NCBI GenBank assembly: GCA_947626875.1
Contig: CANQTV010000002.1
Coordinates: forward strand, 10,324-74,323
Source of the DNA: an uncultured Clostridia bacterium
GTDB lineage: Bacteria > Bacillota > Clostridia > TANB77 > CAG-508
Direction of reading: 5' to 3'
Length of the DNA stretch: 64,000 bases
The translations under genes and the position numbers were made by a program. The notes beneath the pieces are model-generated. The model saw only the letters and a program-made list of their open reading frames with translations. It did not search any database and had not been told where the DNA came from. Below, one piece after another: positions 206 to 52,060 of the stretch (its first letter is position 1; every line of letters starts with the position of its first letter).

Positions 206-3002
206 AATAAAAATACATGAAGTTGCAAAAAAACTAGAGTTAACAAGTAAAGAGGTAATTGATATAGCAAAACAATTAAAAATTGAAGTAAAAAGTCATA
301 TGAGTAGTATAACAGAAGAAGAAATGGCAAAAATAGAAAAAAAGGTTAAAAAATCAGCAGTAAAAAAAGAAGAGAAAAAAGAACCAAAGGCACCATTTAT
401 TATTAGGAGAGAAGTAATTATCAATGAAGATAAATCAAAGAAAGAAGAAGTAAAAAAGGAATCAAAAAGAGAAAATGTAGGTTTTGTAGAAAGAAAACAA
501 AATGCAGATTATAATATTGTTTATCGTAATAAACCAAATAAACCAAAAACGGTGAGTGAATTATTTGGTTTGAAAACAACAAATAATAATCAACAAGCAA
601 AAGCAGAACCAGTAAAAACTGAAAAAGCTGAAAAAACTGAAAAGCCAAAAGAACAGTTAAAAGAACAACCAAAAGAATCAAAAACTGTACAAGAGCAAGC
701 AGAAGTGCACAATCATATGCAAACACAGCCAGTACAAACAAAACAACATATGCAAAATTCAAATCAACAAAGTAGAAATAAAGATAATAATTTTCGCCAA
801 TATAATAATAGAAACAATCATGGAGACAATAGATTTAATAACCGTAAAAATGGAACAAATCAAAATCAAAGTTATCAAAACCGCTTTGGAAATCAAAGGC
901 GCCCATTAGATGAAAAAGGAATTGAAAAAAACATAAAAAACATCATGTCTGCAGATATAGGTGAAAAAGAAGTCGTAAGGGAATACAATAAAAATATTGA
1001 TAAGCAAAAAAATAGTAATAAATTTGAAGAAAATAGGGGAAAGAAAACCAGAAATAGAAGAAACGGAAATGAAAATTCTTTTGATGAAGGTAAACTAAAA
1101 AGCCTAAAACAAACAAGTAAATTATCGCATATGTTTGATGATCAAGAAGGTGGAATGTTAGATTATTATGATTTAACAACACAAAGAGGAAGAAAAGGCA
1201 AGAAAAAACCAAGTAAAGGAAATGAAGAAAGGAATAAGCAGAAAATTTTCAAATTAACAGAAATAGAAATACCGGAAAATATTACGGTAAAAGATTTAGC
1301 TGCTGAGATGAAAAAAACCACAGCAGAAGTTATCAAAAAATTACTAGGATATGGCATTATGGCAACAATTAATAATGAAGTTGACTTTGACACAGCTTTC
1401 TTAGTAGCAGGGGAATTTGGTATTACAGCAAAGAAAAAGGAAACAATAACAGAAGAAGATATTTTGTTTGATGATTCTGAAGATAGTCAAGATGAGTTAC
1501 AAGAAAGACCACCAGTTGTTGTAGTAATGGGACATGTAGACCATGGAAAAACATCTTTATTAGATACAATCCGTAAAACAAATGTTATTGAAGGAGAAGC
1601 AGGTGGTATTACACAGGCGATAGGTGCATATATGGTAAATGTAAATGGTAGACAAATTACATTTCTAGATACACCAGGGCATGAAGCATTTACTGCTATG
1701 AGAGCTAGAGGTGCACAAATTACAGATATTGCAATATTAGTAGTTGCTGCAAATGATGGTATCATGCCACAGACTGTAGAAGCAATAAATCATGCAAAAT
1801 CAGCAGGAATACCAATTATTGTTGCTATTAACAAAATTGATTTACCAGATGCTAATATTGACAAAGTAAAACAAGAATTGATGAACTATGAATTAGTACC
1901 AGAAGAATGGGGAGGAGACACTATTTGTGTACCAATTTCTGCAAAGAAAAATGTAAATATAGATCAATTACTAGAAATGGTATTATTACAAGCAGATGTA
2001 TTAGAATTAAAAGCAAATCCTCATAAACAAGCAAAAGGTGTTGTAATTGAAGCAAGACTTGACAAATCAAAAGGTGCTATTGCAACAATGTTAGTACAAA
2101 GAGGAAAACTAGATGTAGGTGATACAATAGTAGTAGGTTCTTCAATTGGAAGAATCAGAGTCATGACAAATGAAAAAGGCAAAAAAGTAAAATCAGCTAC
2201 ACCATCTACACCAGTAGAAATTATGGGATTAACAGATGTACCAGAAGCGGGAGACACATTCTATGAGGTTAAAGATGAAAAAACAGCAAAACATTTAATA
2301 GAAAGAAGAAAACGTCAAGCAAGAGAAAAAGCTATCAATCAAGTAACAAAAGTAACATTAGATAATTTATTTACTCAAATGGAAGAAGGAAAATTAAAAG
2401 TATTAAACTTAATTGTCAAAGCAGATGTACAAGGTTCTGTTGAAGCAGTAAAACAATCTATGGAAAAACTAGCTAATGATGAAGTTAGAGTAAAAGTAAT
2501 TCACCATGCAACAGGAGCAGTAAATCAATCAGATGTTACATTAGCAAAAGTGTCAAATGCTATAATTATTGCTTTTAATGTAAGACCAGATGCAGTGGCA
2601 AAAGAAATGGCAGAAAAAGATGAAGTAGAAATTAAACAATATTCTGTTATTTATCAAGCTATTGAAGATGTTGAATTAGCAATGAAGGGAATGTTAGATC
2701 CTAAATTTGAAGAAAAAGTCATAGGAAATGTAGAAGTAAGACAAACATTTAAGATTTCAAATGTTGGAACTATTGCAGGAAGTTATGTATTAAGCGGAAA
2801 GGTAGAAAGAAATGCAGGAGTTAGAGTAATTCGTGATAATGTAGTAATTCATGAAGGTAAACTTGCAACATTGAAGAGATTTAAAGATGATGTAAAAGAA
2901 GTTACAAAAGGATTTGAATGTGGTATTCAAATCGAAAACTATGATGATATCAAAGAAGGAGATAATATCGAAGTATATGTCATGGAGGAAATCAAGAGAT
3001 AG
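183..3002 (+). CDS. infB: translation initiation factor IF-2
   Basis: 939 aa with G-domain motifs [20 protein letters not shown] and NKID, and a conserved C-terminal domain. The N-terminal region is a K/E/N/Q-rich low-complexity linker. The start is uncertain: ATG 183, or TTG 198 behind a GGGGGTGA SD. Confidence 0.95.
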
Positions 3003-3115
3003 GGAAAAGGGGACGTCCTTTTTTTCCCTATCAAAATATTCCCTATTTGTGATTTTGTGATATAGAATAAAGAGGGAAAAACGGAATAGGGAAAAAAAGG
3101 ACGTCCCCTTTTCCC
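3002..3115. repeat. family-1 palindromic intergenic element, complete copy
   Basis: The left arm GGGAAAAGGGGACGTCCTTTTTTTCCC (3002-3028) and its exact reverse complement (3089-3115) flank the inner inverted module TATCAAAATATTCCCTATTT / ...GGAATA. The first G is the last base of the infB TAG. Confidence 0.9.
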
Positions 3116-3133
3116 TTAGGAAAGGAGCAAACT

Positions 3134-8990: not shown

Positions 8991-10394
8991 ATGGAAATTT
9001 ATTTATATAATACATTGACAAAAGAAAAAGAAATTTTCAAACCAATTAATCCAGATGAAATAAAAATTTATTCTTGTGGACCGACAGTATATAAAGATGC
9101 AACAATAGGAAATTTGAGAACAAATGTATTTCAAGATGTATTAAGAAGAGTTTTTCAATATAATGAATATAAAATAAAGCATGTAATGAATATAACAGAT
9201 GTAGGTCATTTAGTTTCAGATGGTGATGAAGGGGAAGACAAAATGATAAAATCTGCAAGAGAACAACATAAAACACCATTAGAAATTGCAGAATATTATA
9301 CAAAACTATTTTTTAAAGATTTAGAAGATTTGAATATTCAAACACCTGAAATTATATGTAAAGCAACAGAGCATATTTCAGAAATGCTTGAGTATGTAGA
9401 AGAATTGCTTAAAAATGGATATGCTTATGAAACTTCAACAGCAATATATTTTGATATTTCTAAATTAGACAAATATCCAATATTATCAAACCATGATTTA
9501 GAAGAACAAAAAGCAGGGGCTAGAGTGCAAGTTGATGAAGAAAAGAAAAATCCATATGATTTTGCATTATGGATAAAAGCACCAGAAAATCATTTGATGA
9601 AGTGGGATAGTCCATGGGGACCAAGTTATCCAGGTTGGCATATTGAATGTTCAGCAATGGGTCAGAAATATTTAGGAGAACAATTTGACATACATACAGG
9701 AGGAATTGATTTAATCCCAACACATCATGAAAATGAAATTGCACAAAGTAAAGGTAAATGTGGAAAAATTCCAGCTAATTACTGGTTACATGGAGAATAT
9801 TTATTAATCAATGGTGGAAAAATGTCAAAAAGTCTAAATAATGTATATTTATTGAAAGACATTGAAGAAAAAGGATATGATCCATTGGTATATAAGTTGT
9901 TTTGTTATTCTTGCCATTACCGTAACAAATTAAACTTTACATGGGAAGGAATAGAAGCAACTGCAAAATCATTAGAAAGATTGCGTAATAGTTATCAGAT
10001 GCATTTAAATGGAACAGATGAGTTAGAAGAAAGTGAAAAACAGCAATTAATAGAAATTAAAAGTAATTTTCATAAAGCAATTAATGATGATATGAATATG
10101 CCATTAGCATTAAGTTATGTATGGGAAGTTGCAAAGTTTGATAAAAAATCAAAGGAAATAGCTAAATTATTAGCAAAATTTGATACAGTTTTGGGAATAA
10201 AAATTGATAAAGAAAAACAAGAAATTTCACAAGAAATTCCAAAGGAAGTATTAGAAATAGTAAAAGAAAGAGAACAAGCAAGGGCACAAAAAGATTGGGA
10301 AAAATCAGATAAGCTAAGAGATAAAATTAAAGAAATGGGATATGAAGTGAAAGATACAAAGGAGGGCTCTCAAATCTTAAAAATATTGAGTTGA
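8991..10394 (+). CDS. cysS: cysteine--tRNA ligase
   Basis: Motifs YSCGPTVY, GWHIECS and KMSKS (GGKMSKSLNN). 467 aa. Confidence 0.93.
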   Translation: MEIYLYNTLTKEKEIFKPINPDEIKIYSCGPTVYKDATIGNLRTNVFQDVLRRVFQYNEYKIKHVMNITDVGHLVSDGDEGEDKMIKSAREQHKTPLEIAEYYTKLFFKDLEDLNIQTPEIICKATEHISEMLEYVEELLKNGYAYETSTAIYFDISKLDKYPILSNHDLEEQKAGARVQVDEEKKNPYDFALWIKAPENHLMKWDSPWGPSYPGWHIECSAMGQKYLGEQFDIHTGGIDLIPTHHENEIAQSKGKCGKIPANYWLHGEYLLINGGKMSKSLNNVYLLKDIEEKGYDPLVYKLFCYSCHYRNKLNFTWEGIEATAKSLERLRNSYQMHLNGTDELEESEKQQLIEIKSNFHKAINDDMNMPLALSYVWEVAKFDKKSKEIAKLLAKFDTVLGIKIDKEKQEISQEIPKEVLEIVKEREQARAQKDWEKSDKLRDKIKEMGYEVKDTKEGSQILKILS

Positions 10395-10513
10395 AAAATA
10401 ATTACAATTTTGACTGTGTCAACTTTCATTAAAAACGCGGTTACATACAAAGAGTATGTGCCCTTGCCTTTTTAATAAAAGTTTCCTTGTCAAAATTTAA
10501 TTCTTTTCCAACT
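10389..10513. repeat. family-2 long-hairpin intergenic element, copy A
   Basis: AGTTGAAAAATAATTACAATTTTGAC...GTCAAAATTTAATTCTTTTCCAACT folds as one about 60-bp imperfect hairpin. The cysS TGA (10392-10394) lies inside the left terminus. Confidence 0.88.
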
Positions 10514-11562: not shown

Positions 11563-13281
11563 GTGATAGATTTTAAACAAGAAATAGCAAATACAATTTC
11601 AAAAGTAATTGAAATAAATGCGAATGAATTAAAAGAATATATTGAGATTCCAAAAGATACAAAAAATGGAGATTATGCTTTTCCTTGTTTTCGTCTTGCA
11701 AAAGAATTAAAAAAAGCACCACCAGTAATAGCACAAGAAATTAAAGAAAAAATAGAAATTGATACAAATTATATAGAAAAGGTAGAAATAGCAGGAGGAT
11801 ATTTAAATTTTTATGTACCAAAAATGAAATTGGCTAAAGAAGTTTTAGGAGAGATTGCAAAACAGGAACAATATGGTGCAAGTGATATTGGAAAAGGCAA
11901 AAATATAGTAATTGATTATTCAGCACCAAATATAGCAAAACCATTTCATATTGGGCATCTACGTTCAACAGTAATTGGAGCAGCACTTTATAAAATATAT
12001 AAATATTTAGGATATAATGTAATAGGAATTAACCATTTAGGAGATTATGGTACACAATTTGGAAAATTGATTGAAGGATATAGGTTATGGGGAAACGAAT
12101 ATGACATTGATAAAAATCCTATTGAAGAATTGACGAAAATATATGTTAGGATTAATGAACTGTGTAAGAAAGACGAAAATGTTCTACAAGCTTGTCGTGA
12201 TAATTTCAAAAAATTAGAAGATGGTGATGAATATTGTGTTACACTATGGAAAAAATTTAGAGAACTAAGTTTACAAGAATTTCAAAAAGTTTATGATTTG
12301 CTAGGAAGTGAATTTGATTCATGGAATGGGGAAGCTTTTTACTCTGATAAAATGCCAGAAGTAATAGACATATTAGAAAAGACGGGTAAGCTAGTTGAAT
12401 CACAAGGTGCAATGATTATTGATTTAGAAGAGCAAGGAATAAATACACCTTGTATTATAAAAAAGACAAATGGTTCAACAACATATGCAACAAGGGATTT
12501 AGCAGCAATATTATATAGAGCAAGAACTTATGATTTTGATAAAGCATTATATGTTACTTCATATGAACAAGTATTACATTTTAAACAAGTTTTTGAAGTT
12601 GCAAAATTGTTAGGCTTAGATGAAAAATATACAAAAGGTTTAGAACATGTGTCTTTTGGAATGGTATTATTACCAACAGGAAAAATGTCTACAAGGGAAG
12701 GAAATATTGTTAAATTAGAAGATTTATTGCAAGAGTCAATGACAAGAGCAAAAGAAATTATCGAAGAAAAAAATCCAAGTTTACCAAACAAAGAAGAAAT
12801 TAGTAAAAAAGTTGGAATAGGGGCAATTATATTTAATGATTTAGCAAATAGTCGTGTTAAAGATGAAATATTTGACTGGAACCAAATTTTGAACTTCCAA
12901 GGGGAAACAGGTCCATATATTCAATATACCTATGTGCGTACACAAAGTGTATTAGAAAAAGCAGGTATTGAAAAAGATGAATTAAAAATAGAAAATGTAA
13001 AAGTGGAAACATTACAAGATAGTTATTCTCAAAATATTATAAAATTATTATACAATTTTAATGAGATTTTACAACAGGTAACAGAAAAGAATGAGCCATC
13101 AATTTTGTCACGTTATTTAATTGAATTAGCAAAAGCGTTTAGTGTTTTTTATAATGAAAATAAAATTATGGTGGAAGAAACAGATGTAAGAGATAGTAGG
13201 TTATATTTAACTTATGCAGTTGGCAAAGTTTTGAAGATGGGGGCGGAGTTATTGGGTATGGAGATGCCCGCTAAAATGTAA
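11563..13281 (+). CDS. argS: arginine--tRNA ligase
   Basis: HIGH-type motif PFHIGHLRS, a GKMSTREG loop, and a C-terminal DALR anticodon-binding end ...MPAKM. GTG start behind an AGAAAGGAA SD. Confidence 0.92.
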   Translation: MIDFKQEIANTISKVIEINANELKEYIEIPKDTKNGDYAFPCFRLAKELKKAPPVIAQEIKEKIEIDTNYIEKVEIAGGYLNFYVPKMKLAKEVLGEIAKQEQYGASDIGKGKNIVIDYSAPNIAKPFHIGHLRSTVIGAALYKIYKYLGYNVIGINHLGDYGTQFGKLIEGYRLWGNEYDIDKNPIEELTKIYVRINELCKKDENVLQACRDNFKKLEDGDEYCVTLWKKFRELSLQEFQKVYDLLGSEFDSWNGEAFYSDKMPEVIDILEKTGKLVESQGAMIIDLEEQGINTPCIIKKTNGSTTYATRDLAAILYRARTYDFDKALYVTSYEQVLHFKQVFEVAKLLGLDEKYTKGLEHVSFGMVLLPTGKMSTREGNIVKLEDLLQESMTRAKEIIEEKNPSLPNKEEISKKVGIGAIIFNDLANSRVKDEIFDWNQILNFQGETGPYIQYTYVRTQSVLEKAGIEKDELKIENVKVETLQDSYSQNIIKLLYNFNEILQQVTEKNEPSILSRYLIELAKAFSVFYNENKIMVEETDVRDSRLYLTYAVGKVLKMGAELLGMEMPAKM

Positions 13282-13294
13282 TTCTTTTCCAACT
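13279..13294. repeat. family-2 solo right terminus
   Basis: TAATTCTTTTCCAACT is identical to the right end of copies A and C. Its first three bases are the argS TAA. Confidence 0.6.
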
Positions 13295-17485: not shown

Positions 17486-17614
17486 AGTTGAAAAACAATT
17501 ATAATTTTGGCTGTGTCACAACGATTAAGGAATACAGTTGACTAAAGTCAACTGCATACTGACGCTGTAACAGCTAAAGCTTAACAGCCTCAGCAATTTA
17601 ATTCTTTTTCAACT
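17486..17614. repeat. family-2 element, copy B (same termini, different core)
   Basis: AGTTGAAAAACAATTATAATTTTGGCTGTGTCAC...CAGCCTCAGCAATTTAATTCTTTTTCAACT. The core holds its own hairpins CAGTTGACTAAAGTCAACTG and GCTGTAACAGC. Confidence 0.85.
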
Positions 17615-17652: not shown

Positions 17653-19662
17653 ATGAAGTATACAAAAGAAGCACTTACTTTAGAAAAAGGAATTGAAAGA
17701 GAATGGATTATAACAAATGGCATTGGCGGATTTGCTAGTTCCACTAGTATTGGAATTAATACCAGAAAGTATCATGGTTTGTTAATAGCTCCATTAACAC
17801 CACCAGCTAGGAGATATTTAATATTATCTAAACTAGATGAAAGTCTTGAAATTGGTCAAAAGCATTATGATTTATATTCAAATATGTGTGAAAATTATAT
17901 ATCCAAAGGATATCAATATCAAACAAGTTTTGAAAAAGAATATGTACCTGTATTCACATATAGTGTAGAAGGTGTGCAGATCACAAAAACAATTTGTATG
18001 GAATATGGAAAAAATACTGTAGGTGTGCATTATAAAATAAAAACAAAGGACAAGCCTGTAAAACTAACTTTGGCACCAATTATGAATTTTAGAGATTTTC
18101 ATACAATGAGTACAAATCATGATTTTCAGGTAAAACAACAAATAAACGGAACAAAGGTAAGAGTTGTTATAGATGATGTGATACAATTTCCAATATATAT
18201 GAATTTGTCAGAAGGAAATTATGTGCAACATGAACATGATATATTTTCACATATGTTTTATGTAGAAGAGCAAAAAAGAGGTTTTTATCCAGAGGAAAAC
18301 CATGCAGTAATTGGAAGATATGAAGTAACAATTCCAGAAAATACAACAAAAGAGATTTCATTTGTGTGTTCATTTGAAGAGAATATAGAAGAAATAGATG
18401 TTAAAAAATTAATTCAAAAAGAAAAAAGAAGACTTCAAACAATTGTAAAAAAATCAGATTTAATTGAAGAACCAGAAGCTGAAGAAAAAAAGGAACTTAT
18501 TAAAAATTTAATTATTAGTACAGATAGTTTTATTGCATATAGACCAACATTTAGGTTACATACAATTATAGCAGGATATCCATGGTTTTTAGATTGGGGA
18601 AGAGATAGCTTAATTGCATTAGAAGGGCTATTATTAAAAACAAAAAGATTTGACATAGCCAAAGAAGTGTTATTGACAATGGTAAGAGATATCAAATATG
18701 GATTGGTTCCAAATGGGTATTCAGGTTTTGATAATCGTCCTCTATACAATAGTGTAGATGCATCTTTGTTATTATTTGAACAAATACAAAAATATATTGA
18801 ATATACTGGTGATGAAAGCTTTATTGAAAAAGAAATATTTAGTAAGCTAGAAACGATCATTGAAAATTATATGAATGGAATTGATGTTGATAATAACAAT
18901 ATTTATTTAGATTCAGACAATTTACTTGTATCAGGAACAGACACAACACAAAATACATGGATGGATGCAAAAATTGGTGATTTTGCTGTAACACCACGAA
19001 ATGGTAAAGCGGTAGAGATTAATGCAATGTGGTATAATAGCTTAAAAATCATGGAAAGTTTATGTAAAAAATTTAAGAAAACAACACAAGCAAAGAAATA
19101 TGCTGAATTAGCGAAAGCAACTAAAAATGCATTTGAAGATAAATTTTATAATAGTCGTAGAAAATGTTTGTATGATGTATTAGGAGATAGCAAAATCAGA
19201 CCAAATCAATTATTTAGTTTAAGTTTGACATATCCAATTATTGAACCAAATTCTGAGATTGCAGAAAATATTATTGCAGTAGTGGAGAAAAAGTTATTAA
19301 ATCCATATGGATTGCAAACATTAGCAAAAGGTGAGAAGGGATATGTTGCGGTTTATGAAGGAGATCCTAAAAAACGAGATATGAGTTATCATCAAGGAAT
19401 TACTTGGACATGGTTATTAGGAATTTATTTTGATAGTTTATGCAATATACAAAAAGCACAAAAAGGTAAAACTAAAAAAGAAAAATGGACAAAAAAAATA
19501 CAAGAATTTAAAGAAAATGTAACTCAAACATTTTCAAAAGAAATAGAAGAAAGAGGTTGTGTAGGAAGTATTGCAGAAATTTACGACTCAAATAAACCAT
19601 ATGCACCAAAAGGTGCAATATCACAAGCATGGAGTGTAGCAGAAATTTTGAGAATTATTTAG
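17653..19662 (+). CDS. glycogen debranching enzyme (amylo-alpha-1,6-glucosidase family)
   Basis: N-terminal EWIITNGIGGFASST...RKYHGLL, a GDE_C-type motif GYPWFLDWGRDSLIAL, and C-terminal SQAWSVAEILR. Confidence 0.85.
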   Translation: MKYTKEALTLEKGIEREWIITNGIGGFASSTSIGINTRKYHGLLIAPLTPPARRYLILSKLDESLEIGQKHYDLYSNMCENYISKGYQYQTSFEKEYVPVFTYSVEGVQITKTICMEYGKNTVGVHYKIKTKDKPVKLTLAPIMNFRDFHTMSTNHDFQVKQQINGTKVRVVIDDVIQFPIYMNLSEGNYVQHEHDIFSHMFYVEEQKRGFYPEENHAVIGRYEVTIPENTTKEISFVCSFEENIEEIDVKKLIQKEKRRLQTIVKKSDLIEEPEAEEKKELIKNLIISTDSFIAYRPTFRLHTIIAGYPWFLDWGRDSLIALEGLLLKTKRFDIAKEVLLTMVRDIKYGLVPNGYSGFDNRPLYNSVDASLLLFEQIQKYIEYTGDESFIEKEIFSKLETIIENYMNGIDVDNNNIYLDSDNLLVSGTDTTQNTWMDAKIGDFAVTPRNGKAVEINAMWYNSLKIMESLCKKFKKTTQAKKYAELAKATKNAFEDKFYNSRRKCLYDVLGDSKIRPNQLFSLSLTYPIIEPNSEIAENIIAVVEKKLLNPYGLQTLAKGEKGYVAVYEGDPKKRDMSYHQGITWTWLLGIYFDSLCNIQKAQKGKTKKEKWTKKIQEFKENVTQTFSKEIEERGCVGSIAEIYDSNKPYAPKGAISQAWSVAEILRII

Positions 19663-19763
19663 GGAATTGGGGACGTCCTTTTTTTCCCTATCCAAATTTT
19701 CCCTATTTTGGATAAGGAAGATAAAGAATATTAAAATAGGGAAAATTTAGATAGGGGAAAAAA
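19662..19763. repeat. family-1 element, right GC core missing
   Basis: The left arm GGGAATTGGGGACGTCCTTTTTTTCCC and the inner pair CTATCCAAATTTTCCCTATTTT / AAAATAGGGAAAATTTAGATAG are present. The right side stops at GGGGAAAAAA, just before the ruvC ATG. Confidence 0.85.
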
Positions 19764-21295: not shown

Positions 21296-21361
21296 AAATG
21301 TATAACAAAACCAAATATTGATAAAAATAACAATAATGATTTATCAATAGGAGGTTTTTTT

Positions 21362-22036
21362 ATGTTAAAAAGAATAGGAATAGTATTATTAGTAATTATG
21401 ACATTTGCAGTAACAATAATATTTGTGCAACATTCTGTAGAAGCATTATCAAAATATGGTTCAAGAGGTAATGAAGTAAAAGAAATACAAACAAAATTGA
21501 AGAGATGGGGATATTATAAGGGACAAATAGATGGAATTTATGGAAGTCAAACTTTAGAAGCGGTCAAATATTTCCAAAGAAAAAATGGATTGACAGCTGA
21601 TGGTATTGCAGGACCAGCAACATTAAAAGCTATGGGAATTACATCATCATCTTCAAACACGTCAAGTGGAAGTGGTTCTACGAATTCAAGCAATACGAAT
21701 TTATTAGCAAGATTAGTATATGGAGAAGCAAGAGGAGAACCATATTCTGGACAAGTGGCAGTAGCAGCAGTTGTATTAAATCGTGTAAAGAGTAGCTCTT
21801 TTCCAAATTCAATATCAGGAGTGATATATCAATCAGGTGCATTTAACGTTGTATCAGATGGACAAATAAATTTAACACCAAATGATACAGCCAAAAAAGC
21901 TGCACAAGATGCAATAAATGGGTGGGATCCAAGTTATGGTGCTATTTATTATTTTAATCCATCAACAGCAACAAATAAGTGGATATGGTCAAGACCAATG
22001 ACAGTAACTATTGGGAAACATAGATTTTGCAAGTGA
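21362..22036 (+). CDS. SleB/CwlJ-family cell wall hydrolase with N-terminal peptidoglycan-binding domain
   Basis: Signal/TM segment, then a PG_binding_1 repeat (GSRGNEVKEIQTKLKRWGYYKGQIDGIYGSQT..AVK.FQ...GL.ADGIAG), an S-rich linker, and a Hydrolase_2 core (LARLVYGEARGEPY.GQVAVAAVVLNRV). Confidence 0.85.
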   Translation: MLKRIGIVLLVIMTFAVTIIFVQHSVEALSKYGSRGNEVKEIQTKLKRWGYYKGQIDGIYGSQTLEAVKYFQRKNGLTADGIAGPATLKAMGITSSSSNTSSGSGSTNSSNTNLLARLVYGEARGEPYSGQVAVAAVVLNRVKSSSFPNSISGVIYQSGAFNVVSDGQINLTPNDTAKKAAQDAINGWDPSYGAIYYFNPSTATNKWIWSRPMTVTIGKHRFCK

Positions 22037-22063
22037 GGGAATAGGGGACGCCCTTTTTTTCCC
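22037..22063. repeat. family-1 element, solo left arm
   Basis: GGGAATAGGGGACGCCCTTTTTTTCCC lies immediately after the TGA of the SleB-like gene. Confidence 0.8.
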
Positions 22064-22065
22064 TC

Positions 22066-22094
22066 TTGCCAATAAAGGTAGAATGTGATAAAAT
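22066..22094 (+). promoter_or_regulatory. putative promoter of dnaE
   Basis: TTGCCA-N17-TAAAAT with TGn directly upstream of the -10 hexamer (TGATAAAAT). It begins right after the family-1 solo arm. Confidence 0.45.
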
Positions 22095-22116
22095 TCAGTC
22101 AATAGGGGGCAAGAAT

Positions 22117-25611: not shown

Positions 25612-25627
25612 AATCAAGTTGACAAAA

Positions 25628-25657
25628 TTGACAAGTATTATGGAAACGTGATATAAT
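25628..25657 (+). promoter_or_regulatory. putative promoter of the Spo0A_C-domain gene
   Basis: TTGACA-N18-TATAAT with an extended -10 element (TGATATAAT). A second TTGACA lies 9 nt upstream. Confidence 0.5.
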
Positions 25658-25725
25658 ATAAGATGTCACTGTACATTATTATTTACAACAAGAAAGGAGA
25701 GGAAGGGTACCTTCCAGGAAACAAC

Positions 25726-26181
25726 ATGGAAAACAATATTTTAATTTTGAAGGAGAACTTGAAGTACCTTATTCTTCATGATGAGGAGATACGGGAAATA
25801 ATTTTCCAAATTGTAACGAAAAGAGGATATAATTCAAGTACACCACTTGAAGCAAGAATCTGCGAATTCTTGCAGAAAAGACTAAAGGTGCCAACTAATA
25901 TTCTGGGGTATCGTTATTTGGTCGAAGCAGTAAAAATTGTAGTTGTGGATCCTAGCAATATAAGCAGGGTTTTTGCAAATTTATATGCAGAAATCGCAAA
26001 TAAATTTGAAACCACAATTCCCTGCGTTGAAAGGTCAATTAGACATGCAATACATAAATCTTTTGACCAGATGGAATGCCCAGAGGAAATATTTGTTTAT
26101 AAAAATGGGAGAGTACCAACTAACTCGCAATTCATTGCAACTGTCGCGGAGTATATCCGCTTTAATAAGGACTTGCAATGA
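25726..26181 (+). CDS. stand-alone Spo0A C-terminal (DNA-binding) domain protein, no receiver domain
   Basis: The region GYRYLVEAVKIVVVDPSNISRVFANLYAEIANKFETTIPCVERSIRHAIHKSF matches the Spo0A effector-domain signature (..SRVERAIRHAIE..). It has its own promoter and terminator. The start is uncertain (ATG 25726 or 25663). Confidence 0.7.
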   Translation: MENNILILKENLKYLILHDEEIREIIFQIVTKRGYNSSTPLEARICEFLQKRLKVPTNILGYRYLVEAVKIVVVDPSNISRVFANLYAEIANKFETTIPCVERSIRHAIHKSFDQMECPEEIFVYKNGRVPTNSQFIATVAEYIRFNKDLQ

Positions 26182-26186
26182 ACGAA

Positions 26187-26226
26187 TATCCGGTAGAGCC
26201 ATATTGGCACTGCCGGATACTTTTTT
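26187..26226 (+). terminator. intrinsic terminator after the Spo0A_C-domain gene
   Basis: 13-bp GC-containing stem TATCCGGTAG.GCC / GGC.CTGCCGGATA followed by TTTTTT. Confidence 0.85.
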
Positions 26227-26245
26227 GTAATATTTCCCAAAATAC

Positions 26246-26274
26246 TTGAAAAAAAGCCTAAAACAGTGTAAAAT
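26246..26274 (+). promoter_or_regulatory. putative promoter of pth
   Basis: TTGAAA-N17-TAAAAT with TGT directly upstream of the -10 hexamer. Confidence 0.45.
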
Positions 26275-26307
26275 AGACTAGTAAAGAATAAAGGAGAGAA
26301 AATAAAA

Positions 26308-26866
26308 ATGTATTTAATCATAGGATTAGGAAATCCAGAAGAAGAATATAGTCATACAAGGCACAATATGGGATTTGATACAATTAATCATTTATCTAAA
26401 AAATATGGAATAGAAGTAACAAAAAAGAAATTTAAAAGTTTATATGGAACAGGAATTATAGAAGGGGAAAAAGTAATACTCTTAAAGCCACAAACATATA
26501 TGAATTTAAGTGGAGATGCTATTATAGAAGCAATGGATTACTATGACATTGAAACAGAAGATTTAATTATTATATATGATGATATGGACATTGAAAAAGG
26601 GAAAATAAAAATTAGAAAAAAAGGTGGAGCAGGTTCTCATAATGGAATGAAATCTGTTGTAGAAAATTTACAAACAGAAGAATTTACTAGGATAAGAGTG
26701 GGAATAGGAAGGCCACAGCATGAATATGATGCAATAAATTATGTGATTGGGAAAATATCAAAAGAAGAACAAGAAATTTTAGAAAAAGCAACTCGGAAAA
26801 GCAGCAGAAATCATACCAGAAATCATAAAAAATGGTGTAGACAATGCTATGAATAAATATAATTAA
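26308..26866 (+). CDS. pth: peptidyl-tRNA hydrolase, with an apparent 1-nt frameshift about 22 codons before the end
   Basis: GLGNPEEEYSHTRHNMGF and SGDAI...DD.D...G.I..RKKGGAGSHNG motifs. After codon 164 the canonical tail AAEIIPEIIKNGVDNAMNKYN is read in the +1 frame and ends at 26866. The uninterrupted frame ends at 26856 with an atypical basic tail. Confidence 0.85.
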
Positions 26867-26896
26867 AATGTGTATTAGTAAATACAGGAGGTAGAA

Positions 26897-28078
26897 ATGT
26901 TAGAAGTTTTTATTAGCAAAAAGAATGAGCAAGAAAGAATTGCACTTGTTGAAAATGGAAATCTAGTAGAATATTACGAAGAAGACCCAGATACAGATAG
27001 AAAAGAGGGAAATATTTATATAGGAAAAGTAAAAGACATAATTGTCGGTATGCAATCAGCATTTATAGATATAGGCACAGAAAAAAATAGTTTTATACAT
27101 GTAAGAGATATTTTGCCAAAAGTAGATGAGAAGAATGAAGTATCGAATATGGATGTACAAATTAGAGATGTTATAAAGCCAAATCAAAAATTATTGGTAC
27201 AGGTAAAAAAAGATAGTAATGAAAAAAAAGGAGCAAGAGTTTCAACACATATTAGTTTACCAGGAAGATATATTGTATTAATGCCAAATACTGATATTAT
27301 TACAATTTCGCAAAAAATAGAAAGTAAAAAAGAACAGGAGAGATTACTAAATTTAGTAAAAGAGCATATATCAAAGGAAAATGGTGCTATTATTCGTACA
27401 TCAAGTATGAAAAAAGACAAAGAAATAGTTGCAGAAATTCAAAGTTTAGAAAAAAAATGGAGAGAAATTCAAGAAGAATATGATAACAATACTGAGGGAG
27501 AAGGTAAATTAATTTATCGAGCAGAAACAATTGTTGAAAAAATGTTGTTAGATTTATGCAATCAAAATATTGAAAATATAGTAACAGATGATCAAGCAGA
27601 ATATGAAAAAACTTTAAAAATTAAATCAGAAACACCAGAATTAGAAAATACAAAAATAAATTTAGAGCATAAAGATATATTTGAAAAATATGAAATTGAG
27701 ACGCAAATAGAAAAAAGATTAAATAGAAAAATTTGGCTAAAATGTGGAGGATTTATCACTATTGATAAAACAGAAGCATTAACAGCAATTGATGTTAACA
27801 CAGGAAAATATACAGGAGACAAAAGTTTAGAGCAAACTTTATATAAAGTTAATGAAGAAGCAACAATTGAAATTGCTAAACAAATTAGATTACGTGATAT
27901 TGGTGGAATTATTATTATTGATTATATAGATATGAAAAAACAAGAAAACAAAGATAAAATTCAAAAATTATTGGAAGAAAGGTTAAAATTAGATAGAAGT
28001 AAAACACAAATAGAAGGATTTACAAAATTAGACTTAATGGAGATGACAAGAAAGCATATTTGTAGTCACAAAGAATAG
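26897..28078 (+). CDS. rng: RNase E/G-family ribonuclease (short form, ends before Zn-link/small domain)
   Basis: S1 domain (GNIYIGKVKDIIVGMQSAFIDIG), DNase-I-like region ALTAIDVNTGKYTG and GGIIIIDYIDM. It ends at ...EMTRKHICSHKE. Confidence 0.85.
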   Translation: MLEVFISKKNEQERIALVENGNLVEYYEEDPDTDRKEGNIYIGKVKDIIVGMQSAFIDIGTEKNSFIHVRDILPKVDEKNEVSNMDVQIRDVIKPNQKLLVQVKKDSNEKKGARVSTHISLPGRYIVLMPNTDIITISQKIESKKEQERLLNLVKEHISKENGAIIRTSSMKKDKEIVAEIQSLEKKWREIQEEYDNNTEGEGKLIYRAETIVEKMLLDLCNQNIENIVTDDQAEYEKTLKIKSETPELENTKINLEHKDIFEKYEIETQIEKRLNRKIWLKCGGFITIDKTEALTAIDVNTGKYTGDKSLEQTLYKVNEEATIEIAKQIRLRDIGGIIIIDYIDMKKQENKDKIQKLLEERLKLDRSKTQIEGFTKLDLMEMTRKHICSHKE

Positions 28079-28178
28079 GGAAAAGGGGACGTCCTTTTTT
28101 TCCCTATTGAAATATTCCCTGTTTTTTTATATAAGAGGGAAAAATAGAATAGGGAAAAAAAGGACGTCCCCTTTTCCC
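28078..28178. repeat. family-1 palindromic intergenic element, complete copy
   Basis: The arms at 28078-28104 and 28152-28178 are identical to those of the 3002 copy. TA flanks both ends (28076-28077 and 28179-28180). The rimO SD follows directly. Confidence 0.9.
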
Positions 28179-28192
28179 TAGGAGGAATAAAA

Positions 28193-29533
28193 ATGAAAGT
28201 AGGATTTATATCACTAGGATGTAGTAAAAATTTAATTGATACAGAAATAGCAGTAGGTATGTTTAAAGAACATAAATATATTATTGAAAATCGTCCAGAA
28301 GAAGCAGATATTATTGTGATAAATACTTGTGGATTTATAGATGATGCAAAAGAAGAGGCAATCAATACAATTTTAGAAATGGCAGAATACAAGAAAAGGA
28401 AATGTAAATACCTAATTGTTATGGGATGTTTAGTACAAAGGTATTATGAAGAATTATTAAAATGCTTACCAGAAGTTGATTTATTTATTAAATTAGAAGA
28501 ATATGATAAATTATGGGAAAAAATTGATGATTTATTAAAAAGAGATATTGTAATTAAATCAAAAGGGAAAGCAAAAAAAATACCAATGTTAGATCAAATA
28601 GATTATATGAATAGAGTTGTTACAACTGGAAAAGATTATGCTTATTTGAAGATAGGTGAAGGATGTAGTAATAGATGTACATATTGTGCAATTCCAAATA
28701 TTAGAGGACCTTTTATTAGTCGCCCAAAAGAAGAAATTATTGATGAAGCAAAAATGTTAGCTAAAAAAGGAATTACAGAAATTATTGTTATTGCACAAGA
28801 TACTACAAAATATGGAATTGATATTTATGGAGAACCAAAATTAGTAGAATTACTAGAAGAATTAGCACACATAAAAGAAATAAAATGGATTCGCTTCTTA
28901 TATTCATATCCAGAAGGAATAACACAAGAATTGATTGATTTAGTAGCAAAAAATGATAAAATTGCTAACTACTTTGACATCCCAATTCAACATATATCAA
29001 ATCGAGTATTGAAAAGAATGAATAGAAGGACTACAAAACAGGAGATTGAAATTTTAATAGAAAATATTCGTAAACAAATACCAGATGCTGTAATAAGAAC
29101 AAGTTTGATTGTAGGTTTCCCAGGAGAAACTAAAGATGAATTTGAAGAATTAAAAGAATTTGTGAAAAAGATCCATTTTGATAAATTAGGAGCATTCATG
29201 TATTCAAAAGAAGAAGGGACACCAGCAGCAAGATTACCAGAACAAATTCATGGAAACACTAAGAAATCAAGATATAATCAGATTATGAAAATACAGCAAA
29301 TTATATCAAAACAAAATTTGGAGAAACGTATTGGAAAGAAATGCCAAGTTTTAATAGAAGATATTTCTTTTGATGGAAAATATTATGTAGGTAGGACAAT
29401 GCAAGATGTACCAGAAATAGATGGCTTGGTGTATATTAAAAATACAAGTCCTAAAAATATGTTACATATGTATGTTATGTGCGAGATAGAGGATGTGCAG
29501 GGAGAGTATGATGTGATGGCAAAATTTATATAG
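28193..29533 (+). CDS. rimO: ribosomal protein S12 methylthiotransferase
   Basis: UPF0004 N-terminal domain (GFISLGCSKNLIDTE), radical-SAM CSNRCTYCAIP, and a C-terminal TRAM domain. Confidence 0.88.
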   Translation: MKVGFISLGCSKNLIDTEIAVGMFKEHKYIIENRPEEADIIVINTCGFIDDAKEEAINTILEMAEYKKRKCKYLIVMGCLVQRYYEELLKCLPEVDLFIKLEEYDKLWEKIDDLLKRDIVIKSKGKAKKIPMLDQIDYMNRVVTTGKDYAYLKIGEGCSNRCTYCAIPNIRGPFISRPKEEIIDEAKMLAKKGITEIIVIAQDTTKYGIDIYGEPKLVELLEELAHIKEIKWIRFLYSYPEGITQELIDLVAKNDKIANYFDIPIQHISNRVLKRMNRRTTKQEIEILIENIRKQIPDAVIRTSLIVGFPGETKDEFEELKEFVKKIHFDKLGAFMYSKEEGTPAARLPEQIHGNTKKSRYNQIMKIQQIISKQNLEKRIGKKCQVLIEDISFDGKYYVGRTMQDVPEIDGLVYIKNTSPKNMLHMYVMCEIEDVQGEYDVMAKFI

Positions 29534-29544
29534 GAGGTAGTAAA

Positions 29545-30873
29545 ATGGAAAAAGAAAAAATATTAGAATTTATGAGAGAATTAAAAGTTAATGCTCAAAA
29601 AAGAGGTAGAAGTATAGAGCCTGCATATCTTGGAAAAATAAAAATAGATGAAAATATCAAAGACATCTATTTGGTTCGTGAGTTAATTGAAAAAAAGATT
29701 AATGGTGAAATGCAAACAGTTGAAGTAGATAGTTATATAACAGAGCAACTTGAAAAAATAGCTGGAAACAATAAAAGTGATTCATATCCATATCCAATTG
29801 TAGTAAGTAAATATACAGATCAAAAACAAGATTTAGAAGAACAATTACAAACTTTAGAAGATGAAGGTTTAATAGATTTAGGAGATTTGGAACGTGAGAG
29901 AGCAAAAGAAATAGCAAAAGCATTAAATATTGAAGAGAAACAAATCAAAGAAATTCAAGAAATTGACTTAAATCAAGAAATACAAGAACCTATGCAACAA
30001 GGTCAACAACAAGTTACTCAAAAAGATTTAAAAGGTTTAGATATTAAAGAAGAAACTAATTTAAATCAATATATTAAAGGTGAAACATTAGAAAAGAAAT
30101 TAGGGTTAAGAGAAAATGGCATTGAAGATGGTGTGAAATTAGCAAGAGTATCAAGTAGTAGTTTGAATAAATATCTAGATAAACCAACAACCCAAATTGA
30201 TAGTTTTGTTGTTATTCGTAAAGATGGAACTGCAGTAGCGTTAGGAGAAAATATTTTAACACCAGATAATAGTTTGGGAACAAATCCAACGAAGAAAATT
30301 GCAACAGCGAATGTAGAAATGGGAGATGTAGAAGAGGAACCAATTACAACAAGCTGGAAAATTGCAAATAGAAAAAATGACTATTTAACAGTAGGATATG
30401 ATGAATCATATGGTTCTCATAGAGAAATGAAATATACTATGCGATCTGTTGAAGAAAAAGAATATGTTTCTGTAGAATTAGAGACACAATATACATATCG
30501 CCAGGACGAAGATATAAGGCAATATATGAAAGAAAGAGGAGAGGGCACAAGAACAGCTGATAATGCAATTAAGAGAGATGGGGATCAAACAAAAGGAAAA
30601 AGAGAACAAGTTCAAGATATAGATAATGATAAAAATAATGATACAGAATTAACAATGAAACAGGCAGGAATTGATCCAGAGCAAAAAATACCAGATACAG
30701 ATATAACTTGGAGAGAGTTTGCAGATAAATGTAATATTACAGTTGAAGATGCTTATGATAGATTTCAAGAAAAACGAGAAAAAGAAAATGTAGATATAGA
30801 AAATGAAGATATAATAAATGAAATTGAAGATGATGTAAATGAAGAATGGGGTATGCCAGAACAAAAAAGATAA
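29545..30873 (+). CDS. hypothetical acidic protein (unrecognised)
   Basis: 442-aa ORF with an AGGAGG SD, 11 nt after rimO. It is E/D/K/Q-rich with no TM segment and no motif I can assign. Confidence 0.55.
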   Translation: MEKEKILEFMRELKVNAQKRGRSIEPAYLGKIKIDENIKDIYLVRELIEKKINGEMQTVEVDSYITEQLEKIAGNNKSDSYPYPIVVSKYTDQKQDLEEQLQTLEDEGLIDLGDLERERAKEIAKALNIEEKQIKEIQEIDLNQEIQEPMQQGQQQVTQKDLKGLDIKEETNLNQYIKGETLEKKLGLRENGIEDGVKLARVSSSSLNKYLDKPTTQIDSFVVIRKDGTAVALGENILTPDNSLGTNPTKKIATANVEMGDVEEEPITTSWKIANRKNDYLTVGYDESYGSHREMKYTMRSVEEKEYVSVELETQYTYRQDEDIRQYMKERGEGTRTADNAIKRDGDQTKGKREQVQDIDNDKNNDTELTMKQAGIDPEQKIPDTDITWREFADKCNITVEDAYDRFQEKREKENVDIENEDIINEIEDDVNEEWGMPEQKR

Positions 30874-30899
30874 GTTTTGAAAGAGAGTTGAATGTAAAA

Positions 30900-31904: not shown

Positions 31905-33188
<1,284 letters not shown>

Positions 33189-33360
33189 GGGAATTGGGGA
33201 CGCCCTTTTTTTCCCTAGCCGGGAATTGGGGACGCCCTTTTTTTCCCTATCTAATTCTTCCCTATTTGTATATTATTAAAAAATTATTTTTCCTATCTAA
33301 ATAGGGAAGAATTAGATAGGGAAAAAAAGGGCGTCCCCAATTCCCGGCTAGGGAAAAAAA
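33189..33360. repeat. family-1 element, nested/duplicated copy
   Basis: Two tandem left arms (33189-33215 and 33221-33247) are joined by TAGCC. They are followed by the inner module, a full right arm (33319-33345), GGCTA, and a truncated second right arm GGGAAAAAAA. Confidence 0.9.
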
Positions 33361-33376
33361 TAATTTGTAAAAATAG

Positions 33377-33405
33377 TTGTAAAATTCATGAAAAATTGAT
33401 ATACT
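33377..33405 (+). promoter_or_regulatory. putative promoter of the asp23 cluster
   Basis: TTGTAA-N17-TATACT with an extended -10 element (TGATATACT). It lies just downstream of the nested family-1 element. Confidence 0.45.
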
Positions 33406-33430
33406 GTTACCATGTAAAGGAGGAAGTAAC

Positions 33431-33892: not shown

Positions 33893-33908
33893 AAAAGGAG
33901 TAGTAAAA

Positions 33909-34472: not shown

Positions 34473-34676
34473 ATGGAGGATTTTAAGAAATTTATAAATA
34501 AATATAGTGGTAGTATAATAGGTATTATTGTTGCAATTATTATTTTAGCAACAAGACTATATGACCTAATTATAGGAATTATTGTCGTATTATTAGGAGC
34601 ATTTATTGGAAATTATGTACAACAAAATAAAGAAGATGTAAAAACAAAACTAAAAGGATGGATAGACAAAATGTAA
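34473..34676 (+). CDS. small integral membrane protein (DUF2273-like)
   Basis: 67 aa with two TM helices. It is the third gene of the asp23-amaP cluster, and its start abuts the amaP stop. Confidence 0.6.
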
Positions 34677-34699
34677 TTAGCGAGCAGAAAGGAAGAAAC

Positions 34700-39294: not shown

Positions 39295-39304
39295 TTAGAA
39301 AAAA

Positions 39305-39352
39305 GGGAAAAGGGGACGCCCTTTTTTTCCCTATCTAAATTTTCCCTATTTG
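39305..39352. repeat. family-1 element, left half only
   Basis: GGGAAAAGGGGACGCCCTTTTTTTCCCTATCTAAATTTTCCCTATTTG lies 10 nt after the fhs stop. No right half is present before the Rpn gene. Confidence 0.85.
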
Positions 39353-39410
39353 AAAAATTTCTAATGTCGAATTTTGTCAAAAATTTGTGATAAAAATATA
39401 TCGCAAAGTA

Positions 39411-42461: not shown

Positions 42462-42476
42462 TAATTCTTTTCCAAC
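42462..42476. repeat. family-2 solo right terminus
   Basis: TAATTCTTTTCCAAC lies 4 nt after the stop at 42455-42457. Confidence 0.55.
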
Positions 42477-46209: not shown

Positions 46210-47223
46210 TTGTTGGACCAAAGAAAGAAAAAAGTCTTACAAGCTATTGTAGAAGAATATGTCAATACAGCAGAACCAATCAGCTCAAATCAATTAACAC
46301 AAAAGGAAGAATTAAACTACAGTAGTGCAACCATAAGAAATGAAATGGCGAACTTGGAAAAAGCTGGGTATTTAGAAAAAACACATACATCTAGTGGAAG
46401 AATACCGTCGGAAAAGGGATATCGATACTATGTAGATGAATTATTAAGAGATGATAATATTAGTTTAGAAGAAATCAAATACATTAGTGAGAAATTAGAA
46501 ACAAAAGTTAATGAAATAGAAGAGCTAACAAAACTCACAACAACTACTATTTCAGAAGTTACACATTATACGACAGTGGCAATAGGCCCAAGCCCCAAAA
46601 CACAATGTATAGAAGAGATAAAGTTTGTCTTATTAGGAAGTCGAATGTTAATGGCAATTATCCTAACAAATACAGGTATGGTAAAGGAAACTATTATCAA
46701 ATTTGATGAAGATGTTACAGAAAAACAAGTTGAAACTATTAACTATATGTTCAATAAGAAATTAAAAAATCAGCCATTAGAAGTTATTGATATTCCACTT
46801 CAGGAGTATTTAATAAATGAAATGAAATATAGTGTAAAAGTAATAAAGCCAATTATTGAGCAAATAAAAAAGGCATTACAGGAAGAAACACAGATATATT
46901 TGCAAGGTGCTAATAAAGCTTTTGACTTACCAGAGTTTAATAGTTTGGCAGTTGCAAAGAATTTTATCAATATTATTGATGAAAAAGAGCTAATGGCAGA
47001 TATGTTAAATACTGGATTTGCAAAAGATATAAATGTATATATTGGTGATGAAAATGAAAAAGAACAGTTAAAAGATTTTAGTATTATTACTTTTAAGCAT
47101 AGAGTTGGTAATAGAGATTTGGGTACAATTGGTATTATTGGGCCAAAGAGAATGGATTATTCAAAAGTTATTTCTGTGATGAAGTATATTAGTAAGAAGT
47201 TAAACGAAAAAGAGGTGGATTGA
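46210..47223 (+). CDS. hrcA: heat-inducible transcription repressor HrcA
   Basis: LDQRKKKVLQAIVEEYVNTAEPISSNQL winged-helix N-terminus, with CIRCE directly upstream. The TTG start at 46210 sits 7 nt after an AGAGGTG SD (the ORF track begins earlier, at 46138). Confidence 0.9.
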   Translation: MLDQRKKKVLQAIVEEYVNTAEPISSNQLTQKEELNYSSATIRNEMANLEKAGYLEKTHTSSGRIPSEKGYRYYVDELLRDDNISLEEIKYISEKLETKVNEIEELTKLTTTTISEVTHYTTVAIGPSPKTQCIEEIKFVLLGSRMLMAIILTNTGMVKETIIKFDEDVTEKQVETINYMFNKKLKNQPLEVIDIPLQEYLINEMKYSVKVIKPIIEQIKKALQEETQIYLQGANKAFDLPEFNSLAVAKNFINIIDEKELMADMLNTGFAKDINVYIGDENEKEQLKDFSIITFKHRVGNRDLGTIGIIGPKRMDYSKVISVMKYISKKLNEKEVD

Positions 47224-47342
47224 AAAATAATTACAATTTTGACTGTGTCAAATTTCATTTTGAACGCGGTTACATACAAAAAGTATGCGCCCTTGCCTTC
47301 AAAATAAAATTATCCTTGTCAAAATTTAATTCTTTTCCAATC
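47218..47342. repeat. family-2 element, copy C, inside the hrcA-grpE operon
   Basis: It is collinear with copy A over its full length. The hrcA TGA (47221-47223) lies inside the left terminus GATTGAAAAA. Confidence 0.88.
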
Positions 47343-52030: not shown

Positions 52031-52060
52031 CTAGTTGAAAAATAATTATTTTCCAACTAG
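52031..52060. repeat. family-2 minimal form (both termini fused, no core)
   Basis: CTAGTTGAAAAATAATTATTTTCCAACTAG is a 30-nt hairpin made only of the two family-2 ends. It lies in the leader of the alg14-like operon. Confidence 0.7.

Follow-up and report, generated by a model that had tools for sequence, protein, structure and literature searches.

Two families of short palindromic repeats begin at, or inside, the stop codons of upstream genes in a 64,000-nucleotide (nt) stretch of DNA from an uncultured Clostridia bacterium (GenBank assembly GCA_947626875.1, contig CANQTV010000002.1; hereafter, the whole stretch is called the window). Our comparison with related genomes shows that family 1 is a population of repetitive extragenic palindromic (REP)-type hairpin units and inverted pairs of such units, that is, REP doublets forming hairpins (REPINs) or dimers resembling bacterial interspersed mosaic elements (BIMEs), whereas family 2 reads, from its terminal inverted repeats, as an ordinary MITE (miniature inverted-repeat transposable element). 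An earlier note on this DNA had treated both families as MITE-like; family 1 is instead a REP/REPIN population with an associated REP-associated tyrosine transposase (RAYT). The explanation that we favour, with a probability of roughly 0.6, is that REP/REPIN–RAYT units and a MITE meet stop codons through the compactness of the genome, the stop triplets carried in their termini and the boundary set by the transposase.

The window has about 29% G+C and a strong purine skew, with nearly all genes on the + strand, and its gene names were confirmed by NCBIfam. A species-level scan (one genome per species) with the family-1 core yielded 41 loci from a few uncultured relatives; its sources include metagenome-assembled genomes labelled Clostridiaceae bacterium S24_Bin1 and Clostridium sp. 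26_22, the window's own genome not being among them, and genes common to the window and the scanned relatives are 76–80% identical in DNA. Orthologous regions, each extended by as much as 10 kb per side, came from a metagenome scan queried with Rng. Loci fetched from relatives are designated by L-numbers (L006, L016, L060 and so on), and 64 distinct family-1 units from the window and these loci were compared.

Family 1 as a population of REP-type units

The family-1 unit, (T)AGGGAAww-GGGGACGyCC-TTTTTTTCCCTA, is an A/T-rich hairpin of 27–34 nt with a stem of 13–14 bp, folding at −14 to −17 kcal/mol with G–U pairs or a mismatch. Its 21-nt core, GGGGACGyCCTTTTTTTCCCT, occurs in 10 copies in the window, against 0 expected from shuffles. 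The stem holds G–T pairs, and folding is stronger for the sense unit (−17.3 kcal/mol) than for its antisense counterpart (−11.8 kcal/mol). The base 5′ of GGG is A in 62 of the 64 distinct units but the next base out is T in only 41, so the A is, from these counts, most likely the first base of the unit; with this start, stop and unit overlap by 2 nt at TAG and by 1 nt at TGA or TAA. The TA pairs with an inner CCCTA that is present in 63/64 units and, as had been pointed out before, a TA duplication therefore cannot be separated from a longer inverted repeat. A second TTTCCCTA lies on the inner side of the conserved hairpin unit. An extra copy of the 3′ arm (wTTTCCCTA), about 8–10 nt inward of each unit (window 3030–3048 and 28106–28123, and all units of the relatives), could pair with the 5′ arm of the unit as an alternative hairpin.

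In the window and in relatives, units are found singly or as inverted pairs with their TAGGG ends outward. The interiors of these head-to-head pairs measure 57–190 nt and are unrelated among copies, and rare variants are often common to both units of a pair (AGTAAA in L016, ATTTA in L017 and ATAAGG in L006). Whole genes also stand between two outward-facing units in relatives, namely adk (L018 899–1939) and a gene for a 219-residue protein (L017 6962–7907); these gene-spanning pairs are either independent solo units or enlarged REPIN interiors. Many extragenic copies, singletons, inverted dimers and variable linkers together make up the architecture of REP/REPIN populations. A classical MITE with TA duplication (IS630/mariner/Tc1-like) was rejected for family 1, because the interiors are variable and unconserved, some holding whole genes, and because the TA lies within the unit's own palindrome. 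TA termini are a feature of the MITE-type Correia/nemis and ERIC elements. The 219-residue product of L017 is membrane-anchored, and both units flanking its gene carry the rare ATTTA variant; the adenylate kinase gene between units in L018 sits directly upstream of map.

The copy downstream of rng is a 105-nt near-perfect palindrome that reads ...AAA GAA TAG GGAAAAGGGGACGTCCTTTTTTTCCCTAT ... ATAGGGAAAAAAAGGACGTCCCCTTTTCCC TAGGAGGAATAAAAATG. Its RNA folds at −69.4 kcal/mol (z = −10.8), and folding of the opposite strand is nearly as strong. Pairing starts with the three bases of the rng UAG stop (28076–28078) and ends with the CUA just 5′ of GGAGG; on the DNA, the 3′ end ...CCCTA leads into this GGAGG and the ATG at 28193. 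Two Logan contigs with the window's exact rng (L073 and L074) end 21 nt past the stop, within the family-1 unit.

Family 2 as a probable MITE

Family-2 ends are GTTGAAAAATAATTACAATTTTGAC and GTCAAAATTTAATTCTTTTCCAAC; in the window there are three complete copies, two solo ends and a single mini copy of fused ends. The terminal inverted repeats span 24–25 nt in an element of 121–125 nt whose transcript is strongly folded, and variants occur in relatives. Direct repeats (TGAG or CTAG) surround 2/4 copies, and interiors differ between copies. When the ends of the minimal palindrome are read as TTGAAAAA...TTTTCCAA (52035–52056), CTAG stands on both sides of it.

A RAYT gene flanked by family-1 units in relatives

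A tblastn search with an E. coli RAYT sequence gave a weak match beside a unit in L016 (E = 0.008); the same search with an IS200 sequence gave no match, and an ISHp608 sequence matched at chance level only (E = 0.65). The open reading frame (ORF) found in L016 and L060 scores 38.9 bits against Pfam Y1_Tnp (cut-off 23), and its best NCBIfam model is REP_Tyr_transpos (‘REP-associated tyrosine transposase’) at 62.6 bits, with IS200 at 17.7 bits. A search of PDB with the single RAYT sequence gave no match; a profile of 30 homologues had 4ER8, the E. coli TnpA-REP, as its sole credible match (E = 2e-7), the four others listed lying at about 0.1. H66-x-H68 and Y126 are invariant in the transposase alignment and are read as a putative HUH motif and the presumed catalytic tyrosine.

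In L060, the gene for this protein (P0001, 259 residues) has a ferredoxin gene on one side and a convergent LPG-synthase gene on the other, and it is flanked by two inverted family-1 units, both of a TTTTCTT variant. The left unit shares the ferredoxin TAG, and the LPG-synthase gene takes its stop from the TAA of GGG AAA TAA in the right unit. The same syntenic site with flanking inverted units recurs in L063 (an 88% homologue) and in L066/L067 (P0004, a 54% homologue). The units beside P0004 have the short GGGAATAGGGGACGTCC form that is typical of the window's units. One P0004 contig belongs to run ERR10663698, in which the exact Rng protein of the window also occurs. Logan contigs of about 960 bp also carry the RAYT gene bounded by its flanking units.

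A single-copy, syntenic Y1 gene flanked by inverted dispersed hairpins is the defining picture of REP–RAYT systems (PMC3733652, PMC5581495). Judged by sequence, family 1 would belong to a REP–RAYT system of a clade of uncultured low-GC Clostridia, its RAYT gene being seen in three related genomes. We infer that this RAYT mobilises family-1 units, with a predicted cut site at CCC↓TA of the unit (arrow, cut) by analogy with the CC↓TAC of E. coli.

Contact with stop codons

Every stop coordinate in the earlier note proved correct on the sequence, as did the contacts that it described. TAG leads directly into GGGAA at infB, the debranching-enzyme gene and rng, GGGAA follows immediately after the SleB TGA and the obg TAA, and fhs alone has a gap, of 10 nt. 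For family 2, the cysS and hrcA TGA codons lie within (G/A)TTGAAAAA, and the argS TAA opens TAATTCTTTTCCAAC. The count of zero spacing in 8/11 copies stands: 5/6 of family 1 and 3/5 of family 2 overlap or abut the upstream stop. The last two family-2 copies had been placed 4–6 nt from a stop, which is right for the solo end at 42463 (4 nt) and wrong for the copy at 17487 (7 nt). Ordinary terminators had been said to behave differently; they do start about 5 to 45 nt past stops, but with n = 3 the contrast is weak.

The stop-contact pattern exceeds chance. Against uniform placement in intergenic space, stop proximity has a Fisher-combined p of 2e-9, and the outer end faces the nearer gene boundary in 32 of the 33 solo units of the window and relatives (binomial p = 4e-9). 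Between co-directional genes, sense solo units are nearer the upstream stop (24/25) and antisense units nearer the downstream start (8/8); all 8 antisense units lie 13–25 nt from that start, just 5′ of the Shine–Dalgarno sequence, even in intergenic regions of 100–600 nt. Among about 33 stop-facing units in relatives, approximately 4 share a TAG, 4 hold the stop at their internal GGG AAA TAA, approximately 13 begin 3–10 nt past the stop and approximately 9 begin 13–45 nt past it. Offsets in relatives range from −45 to +50 nt and exact zero spacing is not conserved, which argues against a strict functional need for it. The coupling of orientation and position leaves room for a targeting or functional component beyond selection.

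Upstream C-termini and empty sites

One suggestion had been that the element supplies the stop codon and replaces the native C-terminus. This fails for family 1 in the window and holds, in a small way, for family-2 cysS and for some ORFs of relatives. Our check of the proteins upstream of family 1 found that Rng, IF-2, SleB, Obg and Fhs end identically in element-free orthologues. Rng ends HICSHKE followed by TAG in the element-free L046 and HICSHNS followed by TAG in L047, with 23 nt to the rimO ATG, and in L042 the start of rimO overlaps the rng stop. In relatives without a family-1 unit, the last residues are also unchanged for IF-2, SleB, Obg and Fhs. For IF-2, SleB, Obg, Fhs, ArgS and HrcA, the alignment to the NCBIfam profile extends to the very C-terminus. 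The matching ends in element-free orthologues indicate that family 1 has not rewritten protein ends in the window.

CysS behaves differently: its nearest element-free orthologues end ...KI*, with a TAG or TGA touching the Shine–Dalgarno sequence, whereas CysS of the window has two extra residues and takes its stop from the TGA inside the family-2 repeat. In L042, a 691-residue ORF stops at the TAA of a family-2 repeat, and several ORFs of relatives end at the internal TAA of a family-1 unit (GGG AAA TAA) or deeper in the unit. Compared with its counterpart in L006, where a unit also shares its TAG, the debranching enzyme of the window lacks 3 residues; the two insertions are probably independent. 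In L008 (5837–5870), a unit variant with CCCTAAATTTCCC in place of CCCTTTTTTTCCC creates a TAA that ends a 1,347-residue ORF 23 nt into the unit, in a frame otherwise without an early stop.

Empty sites show what the junctions look like without an insertion. In L011 obg ends TAGGAGGTTTTGATATG and in L069 cysS ends TAGGAGGGAAAAATATG, the stop overlapping the next Shine–Dalgarno sequence, and the rng junction of the window with the element removed is TAGGAGGAATAAAAATG. The infB stop is TAA in one relative and TAG where a unit is present. Other palindromic repeats occupy the same junctions after infB in L047, after fhs in L030 and after the SleB gene in L006; CCAAAAAAGACCCGGTCCCAATTGACAC is present twice among them, alongside CCAATTGGGGACGGGTAC...GTACCCGTCCCCAATTGG and a hairpin whose loop contains GGGGACGG, and several of them share GGGGACG with family 1. 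The infB, fhs and SleB junctions appear to be recurrent landing sites.

Why the ends meet stop codons

Compactness would be the first of three combined reasons in the favoured explanation. Where relatives lack the element, the stop is in contact with, or overlaps, the Shine–Dalgarno sequence (TAGGAGG) or promoter of the next gene, so that the stop codon itself may be the only insertion point that harms neither gene; an element inserted at this one neutral position would touch the stop on one side and the Shine–Dalgarno sequence on the other. Both contacts are seen at infB, rng and the debranching-enzyme gene; in the SleB and obg copies, the unit occupies the space from the stop to a promoter-like site. 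Given empty sites with overlapping stop and Shine–Dalgarno sequences, selection alone would explain most of the zero spacing. The termini probably contribute as well, carrying stop triplets in family 1 ((T)A↓G, GGG AAA TAA and GGG GAA TAG) and in family 2 (TTGA and AAATAA). Stops occur in 2/3 frames of the repeat termini, so an insertion in the stop or last codons would regenerate a stop with 0–2 residues changed. The boundary TA↓GGG (CCC↓TA on the other strand) would sit at the TnpA-REP cut position, and the chemistry of transposition may thereby set the TA/G junction of the stop. Once transcribed, a pair is predicted to fold into a hairpin of about 50 bp whose base includes the stop and which ends at the Shine–Dalgarno sequence.

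Several findings weigh against this explanation. The REP_Tyr_transpos score of 62.6 bits falls below the curated cut-off of 80, and the 64-kb window has no RAYT gene, so that the tie to the window's genome is co-occurrence in run ERR10663698. The rng copy shows no presence/absence polymorphism, identical-Rng contigs carrying the identical element or breaking inside it, so recent mobility is not supported. No window copy has the G of GTAG, which only 18/40 TA-flanked units carry overall, and the TA of family 1 is base-paired, whereas GTAG is unpaired in classic REP families. Solo units in long intergenic regions (obg, fhs, L028 and L009) still hug a stop or Shine–Dalgarno sequence; neutral-point selection by itself leaves this hugging, and the tight coupling of orientation to boundary, unexplained.

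A rival reading takes zero spacing to be adaptive, with the hairpins retained at the stop for an action on the mRNA. They could protect or process the 3′ end of the upstream cistron and give the downstream cistron a 5′ hairpin, or they could oblige the terminating ribosome to melt them, tuning upstream yield or coupling translation of the next gene. In keeping with this reading, outer ends abut the stop or Shine–Dalgarno sequence in long intergenic regions with orientation and position coupled in 32/33 units, sense units are three times commoner among solo units and form the more stable RNA hairpin through G–U pairs, the unit at 22036 is altered on both sides such that its outermost pair is kept (GAGGG...CCCTC), the full pair reaches −69 kcal/mol with the stop codon paired, different palindromic repeats lie at the same junctions in relatives, and ribosome stalling by stop-proximal REPs is on record, as summarised in PMC12306157. 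We nevertheless consider this reading rather unlikely, given that spacing in relatives runs from −45 to +50 nt with exact zero not conserved, that both strands of the full pair fold equally well, that orthologous junctions work without any element and that the units make poor canonical terminators. A further step, in which the RAYT–REP system would punctuate operons, being targeted to gene boundaries or kept there beyond survival at a neutral point, is one that we regard as doubtful. If true, outer ends on the stop or just 5′ of the Shine–Dalgarno sequence would let the hairpin juxtapose the stop with the next ribosome-binding site, and a terminating ribosome melting it could put mRNA processing or downstream initiation under translation-coupled control at essential genes such as infB, rng and obg. 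By analogy with E. coli, ribosome–hairpin coupling at these stops is plausible.

Stop-like target sites and selection for spacer-free insertion, both put forward earlier, are each compatible with the data. Target-site specificity alone, with (T)A↓ for family 1 and 4-bp sites of the CTAG/TGAG type for family 2 and with stops carrying the motif, would account for the A before GGG in 62/64 units and the TA in 41/64, for a boundary that matches the E. coli TnpA-REP cut CC↓TAC (PMC3333891), for the flanks TGAG/TGAG (10391) and CTAG/CTAG (52035) of family 2, and for infB ending in TAA in a relative versus TAG with a unit. It is nonetheless quite improbable as a sufficient cause: TA accounts for 10% of the genome's dinucleotides and is too short to place insertions at a stop by itself, it is inseparable from the palindrome (inner CCCTA in 63/64), and 2/4 family-2 copies lack a direct repeat. 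We give very little credence to the idea that elements generally supplied new stops in place of the native C-termini of upstream proteins. The two extra residues of CysS with its TGA inside the family-2 repeat, the ORFs that end in units (the LPG-synthase gene of L060 and the ferredoxin gene of L066) and the shortened debranching enzyme speak for it; the unchanged ends of Rng, IF-2, SleB, Obg and Fhs, and the fit of ArgS and HrcA to their profile ends, speak against it. Wholesale replacement by family 1 in the window is refuted as a general account and survives as an occasional outcome.

Two further candidates were rejected. An intrinsic (Rho-independent) terminator does not serve as the main reading, since the run of seven T residues is the 3′ arm of the stem and not an unpaired tail; a terminator scan of the + strand from 20001 to 40000 gave one weak 5-pair match in a family-1 unit (22043). 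Integron attC sites, which overlap the stops of cassettes, were dismissed because the identified flanking genes are core housekeeping genes in ordinary operons; no integrase-like ORF was found among the window ORFs scanned, which did not cover every ORF of the window.

Relation to known systems

In compact genomes, REP/REPIN and MITE elements are already known for ends that abut stop codons. The distance from REPs to the 3′ ends of ORFs is under 20 bp, and their GTAG termini often supply a TAG stop (Di Nocera et al. 2013, PMC3733652); the published pattern is one of closeness to the upstream ORF and variable distance to the downstream ORF (PMC3733652). E. coli TnpA-REP cuts its own REPs at CC↓TAC, which reads GTA↓G on the complementary strand (Ton-Hoang et al. 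2012, PMC3333891). Family 1 resembles these systems in its short imperfect hairpin with G–T pairs, its singletons and head-to-head pairs 20–100 or more bp apart with variable linkers, its extragenic placement, for the most part behind unidirectional or convergent genes and under 20 bp from where the ORF ends, its TAG stops drawn from termini, its one syntenic Y1 gene between inverted units and its CC↓TA boundary. It differs in its host, a low-GC uncultured Clostridium-like lineage, in an A/T-rich unit with a 13–14 bp stem, in a G of GTAG that is weak or missing and a TA that is paired, in the extra subterminal TTTCCCTA after each unit, and in a RAYT of about 255 residues that scores under the NCBIfam RAYT cut-off. 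No Firmicutes are among the hosts in the account of GTAG REPs (PMC3733652), and Clostridia are noted for Group 1 RAYTs only, which are not linked to abundant REPs (Bertels et al. 2017, PMC5581495). REP/REPIN–RAYT systems are best known from Proteobacteria; our findings add to their range an uncultured, low-GC lineage of gut Clostridium whose unit is unusually rich in A/T.

In E. coli, terminating ribosomes are reported to stall at REPs that lie no more than 15 nt from a stop codon, and translation is lowered (Liang, Rudd and Deutscher 2015; summary in PMC12306157). The stable hairpin of family 1 likewise starts within the footprint of a ribosome on the stop, but it begins inside the stop, many of its junctions are operon-internal, and its 3′ end touches a Shine–Dalgarno sequence. 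Family 2 is closer to the Coxiella MITEs QMITE1 and QMITE2, which overlap the 3′ ends of genes by 1–50 bp with protein size unchanged (PMC5896051): it shares terminal repeats of about 25 nt, a length of 121–125 nt, a strongly folded transcript, overlap with the last bases of functional genes and little change in protein length, and differs in its 4-bp direct repeats (TGAG and CTAG) in 2/4 copies and its varying interiors.

These repeats illustrate how elements may survive where a genome is very compact, at the one neutral position from stop to Shine–Dalgarno sequence and with stop triplets of their own. The tight stop–hairpin–Shine–Dalgarno geometry makes them a candidate test bed for translation-coupled RNA folding. 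On the practical side, family-1 units fragment short-read assemblies, and units can mislead gene callers on the last codons and start sites of their neighbours.

Copies in the window

The copies of both families are listed in Table 1. The right unit of the infB pair stops just 5′ of TAGGAAAGGAG, a Shine–Dalgarno sequence, and the next ATG is at 3134. In the copy at 19661, the TAGGGG of the truncated right unit serves as the Shine–Dalgarno sequence for the ATG at 19765; this unit ends ...GATAGGGGAAAAAATATG (window 19733–19768), so the sole Shine–Dalgarno-like sequence of the gene at 19765 comes from the repeat. A promoter-like TTGCCA-17-TAAAAT begins at 22066, directly after the solo unit. The obg cluster also holds one antisense unit (33317–33345) and a truncated outer arm. 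Downstream of the fhs half element, a strong promoter-like TTGACA-17-TATTAT (39411–39439) lies upstream of a gene starting at 39628 and is flanked by TGTCGAA and TTCGAC motifs that resemble Spo0A boxes (region 39340–39630).

Table 1 Family-1 and family-2 copies in the window
Feature	Coordinates	Strand	Context
Family-1 inverted pair (REPIN-like)	3001..3116	+	Between infB and the next gene; left unit begins within infB TAG 3000–3002
Family-2 MITE-like element	10390..10512	+	cysS TGA 10392–10394 inside left repeat; flanking TGAG direct repeat
Solo family-2 right end, TAATTCTTTTCCAAC	13279..13293	+	First triplet is the argS stop; ArgS C-terminus complete versus TIGR00456
Family-2 copy, different interior	17487..17613	+	7 nt after TAA 17477–17479 of YvcK-related gene
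Family-1 copy	19661..19763	+	After glycogen debranching enzyme gene, TAG 19660–19662; left unit complete, right truncated
Solo family-1 unit	22036..22065	+	Overlaps last A of SleB TGA 22034–22036
Family-1 inverted pair (focal copy)	28076..28180	+	Between rng (Rne/Rng family) and rimO
Nested family-1 cluster	33188..33360	+	After obg TAA 33186–33188; sense units 33189–33217 and 33221–33249
Family-1 half element	39304..39356	+	One sense unit plus subterminal TTTCCCTA; 10 nt after fhs TAG 39292–39294
Solo family-2 right end	42462..42476	+	4 nt after TAG 42455–42457
Family-2 copy	47220..47340	+	hrcA TGA 47221–47223 inside left repeat; 91% identity to 10391–10511
Minimal family-2 palindrome, two fused ends GTTGAAAAATAATTATTTTCCAAC	52034..52057	.	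Divergent intergenic region

Scans of the whole window with Rfam (gathering threshold) and for tRNA and tmRNA gave no match. Tandem repeats of 18 nt (and 36 nt), 60–70% alike, occupy 45674–45955 within a − strand ORF (45066–45983, 305 residues), and a repetitive protein segment is expected from them.

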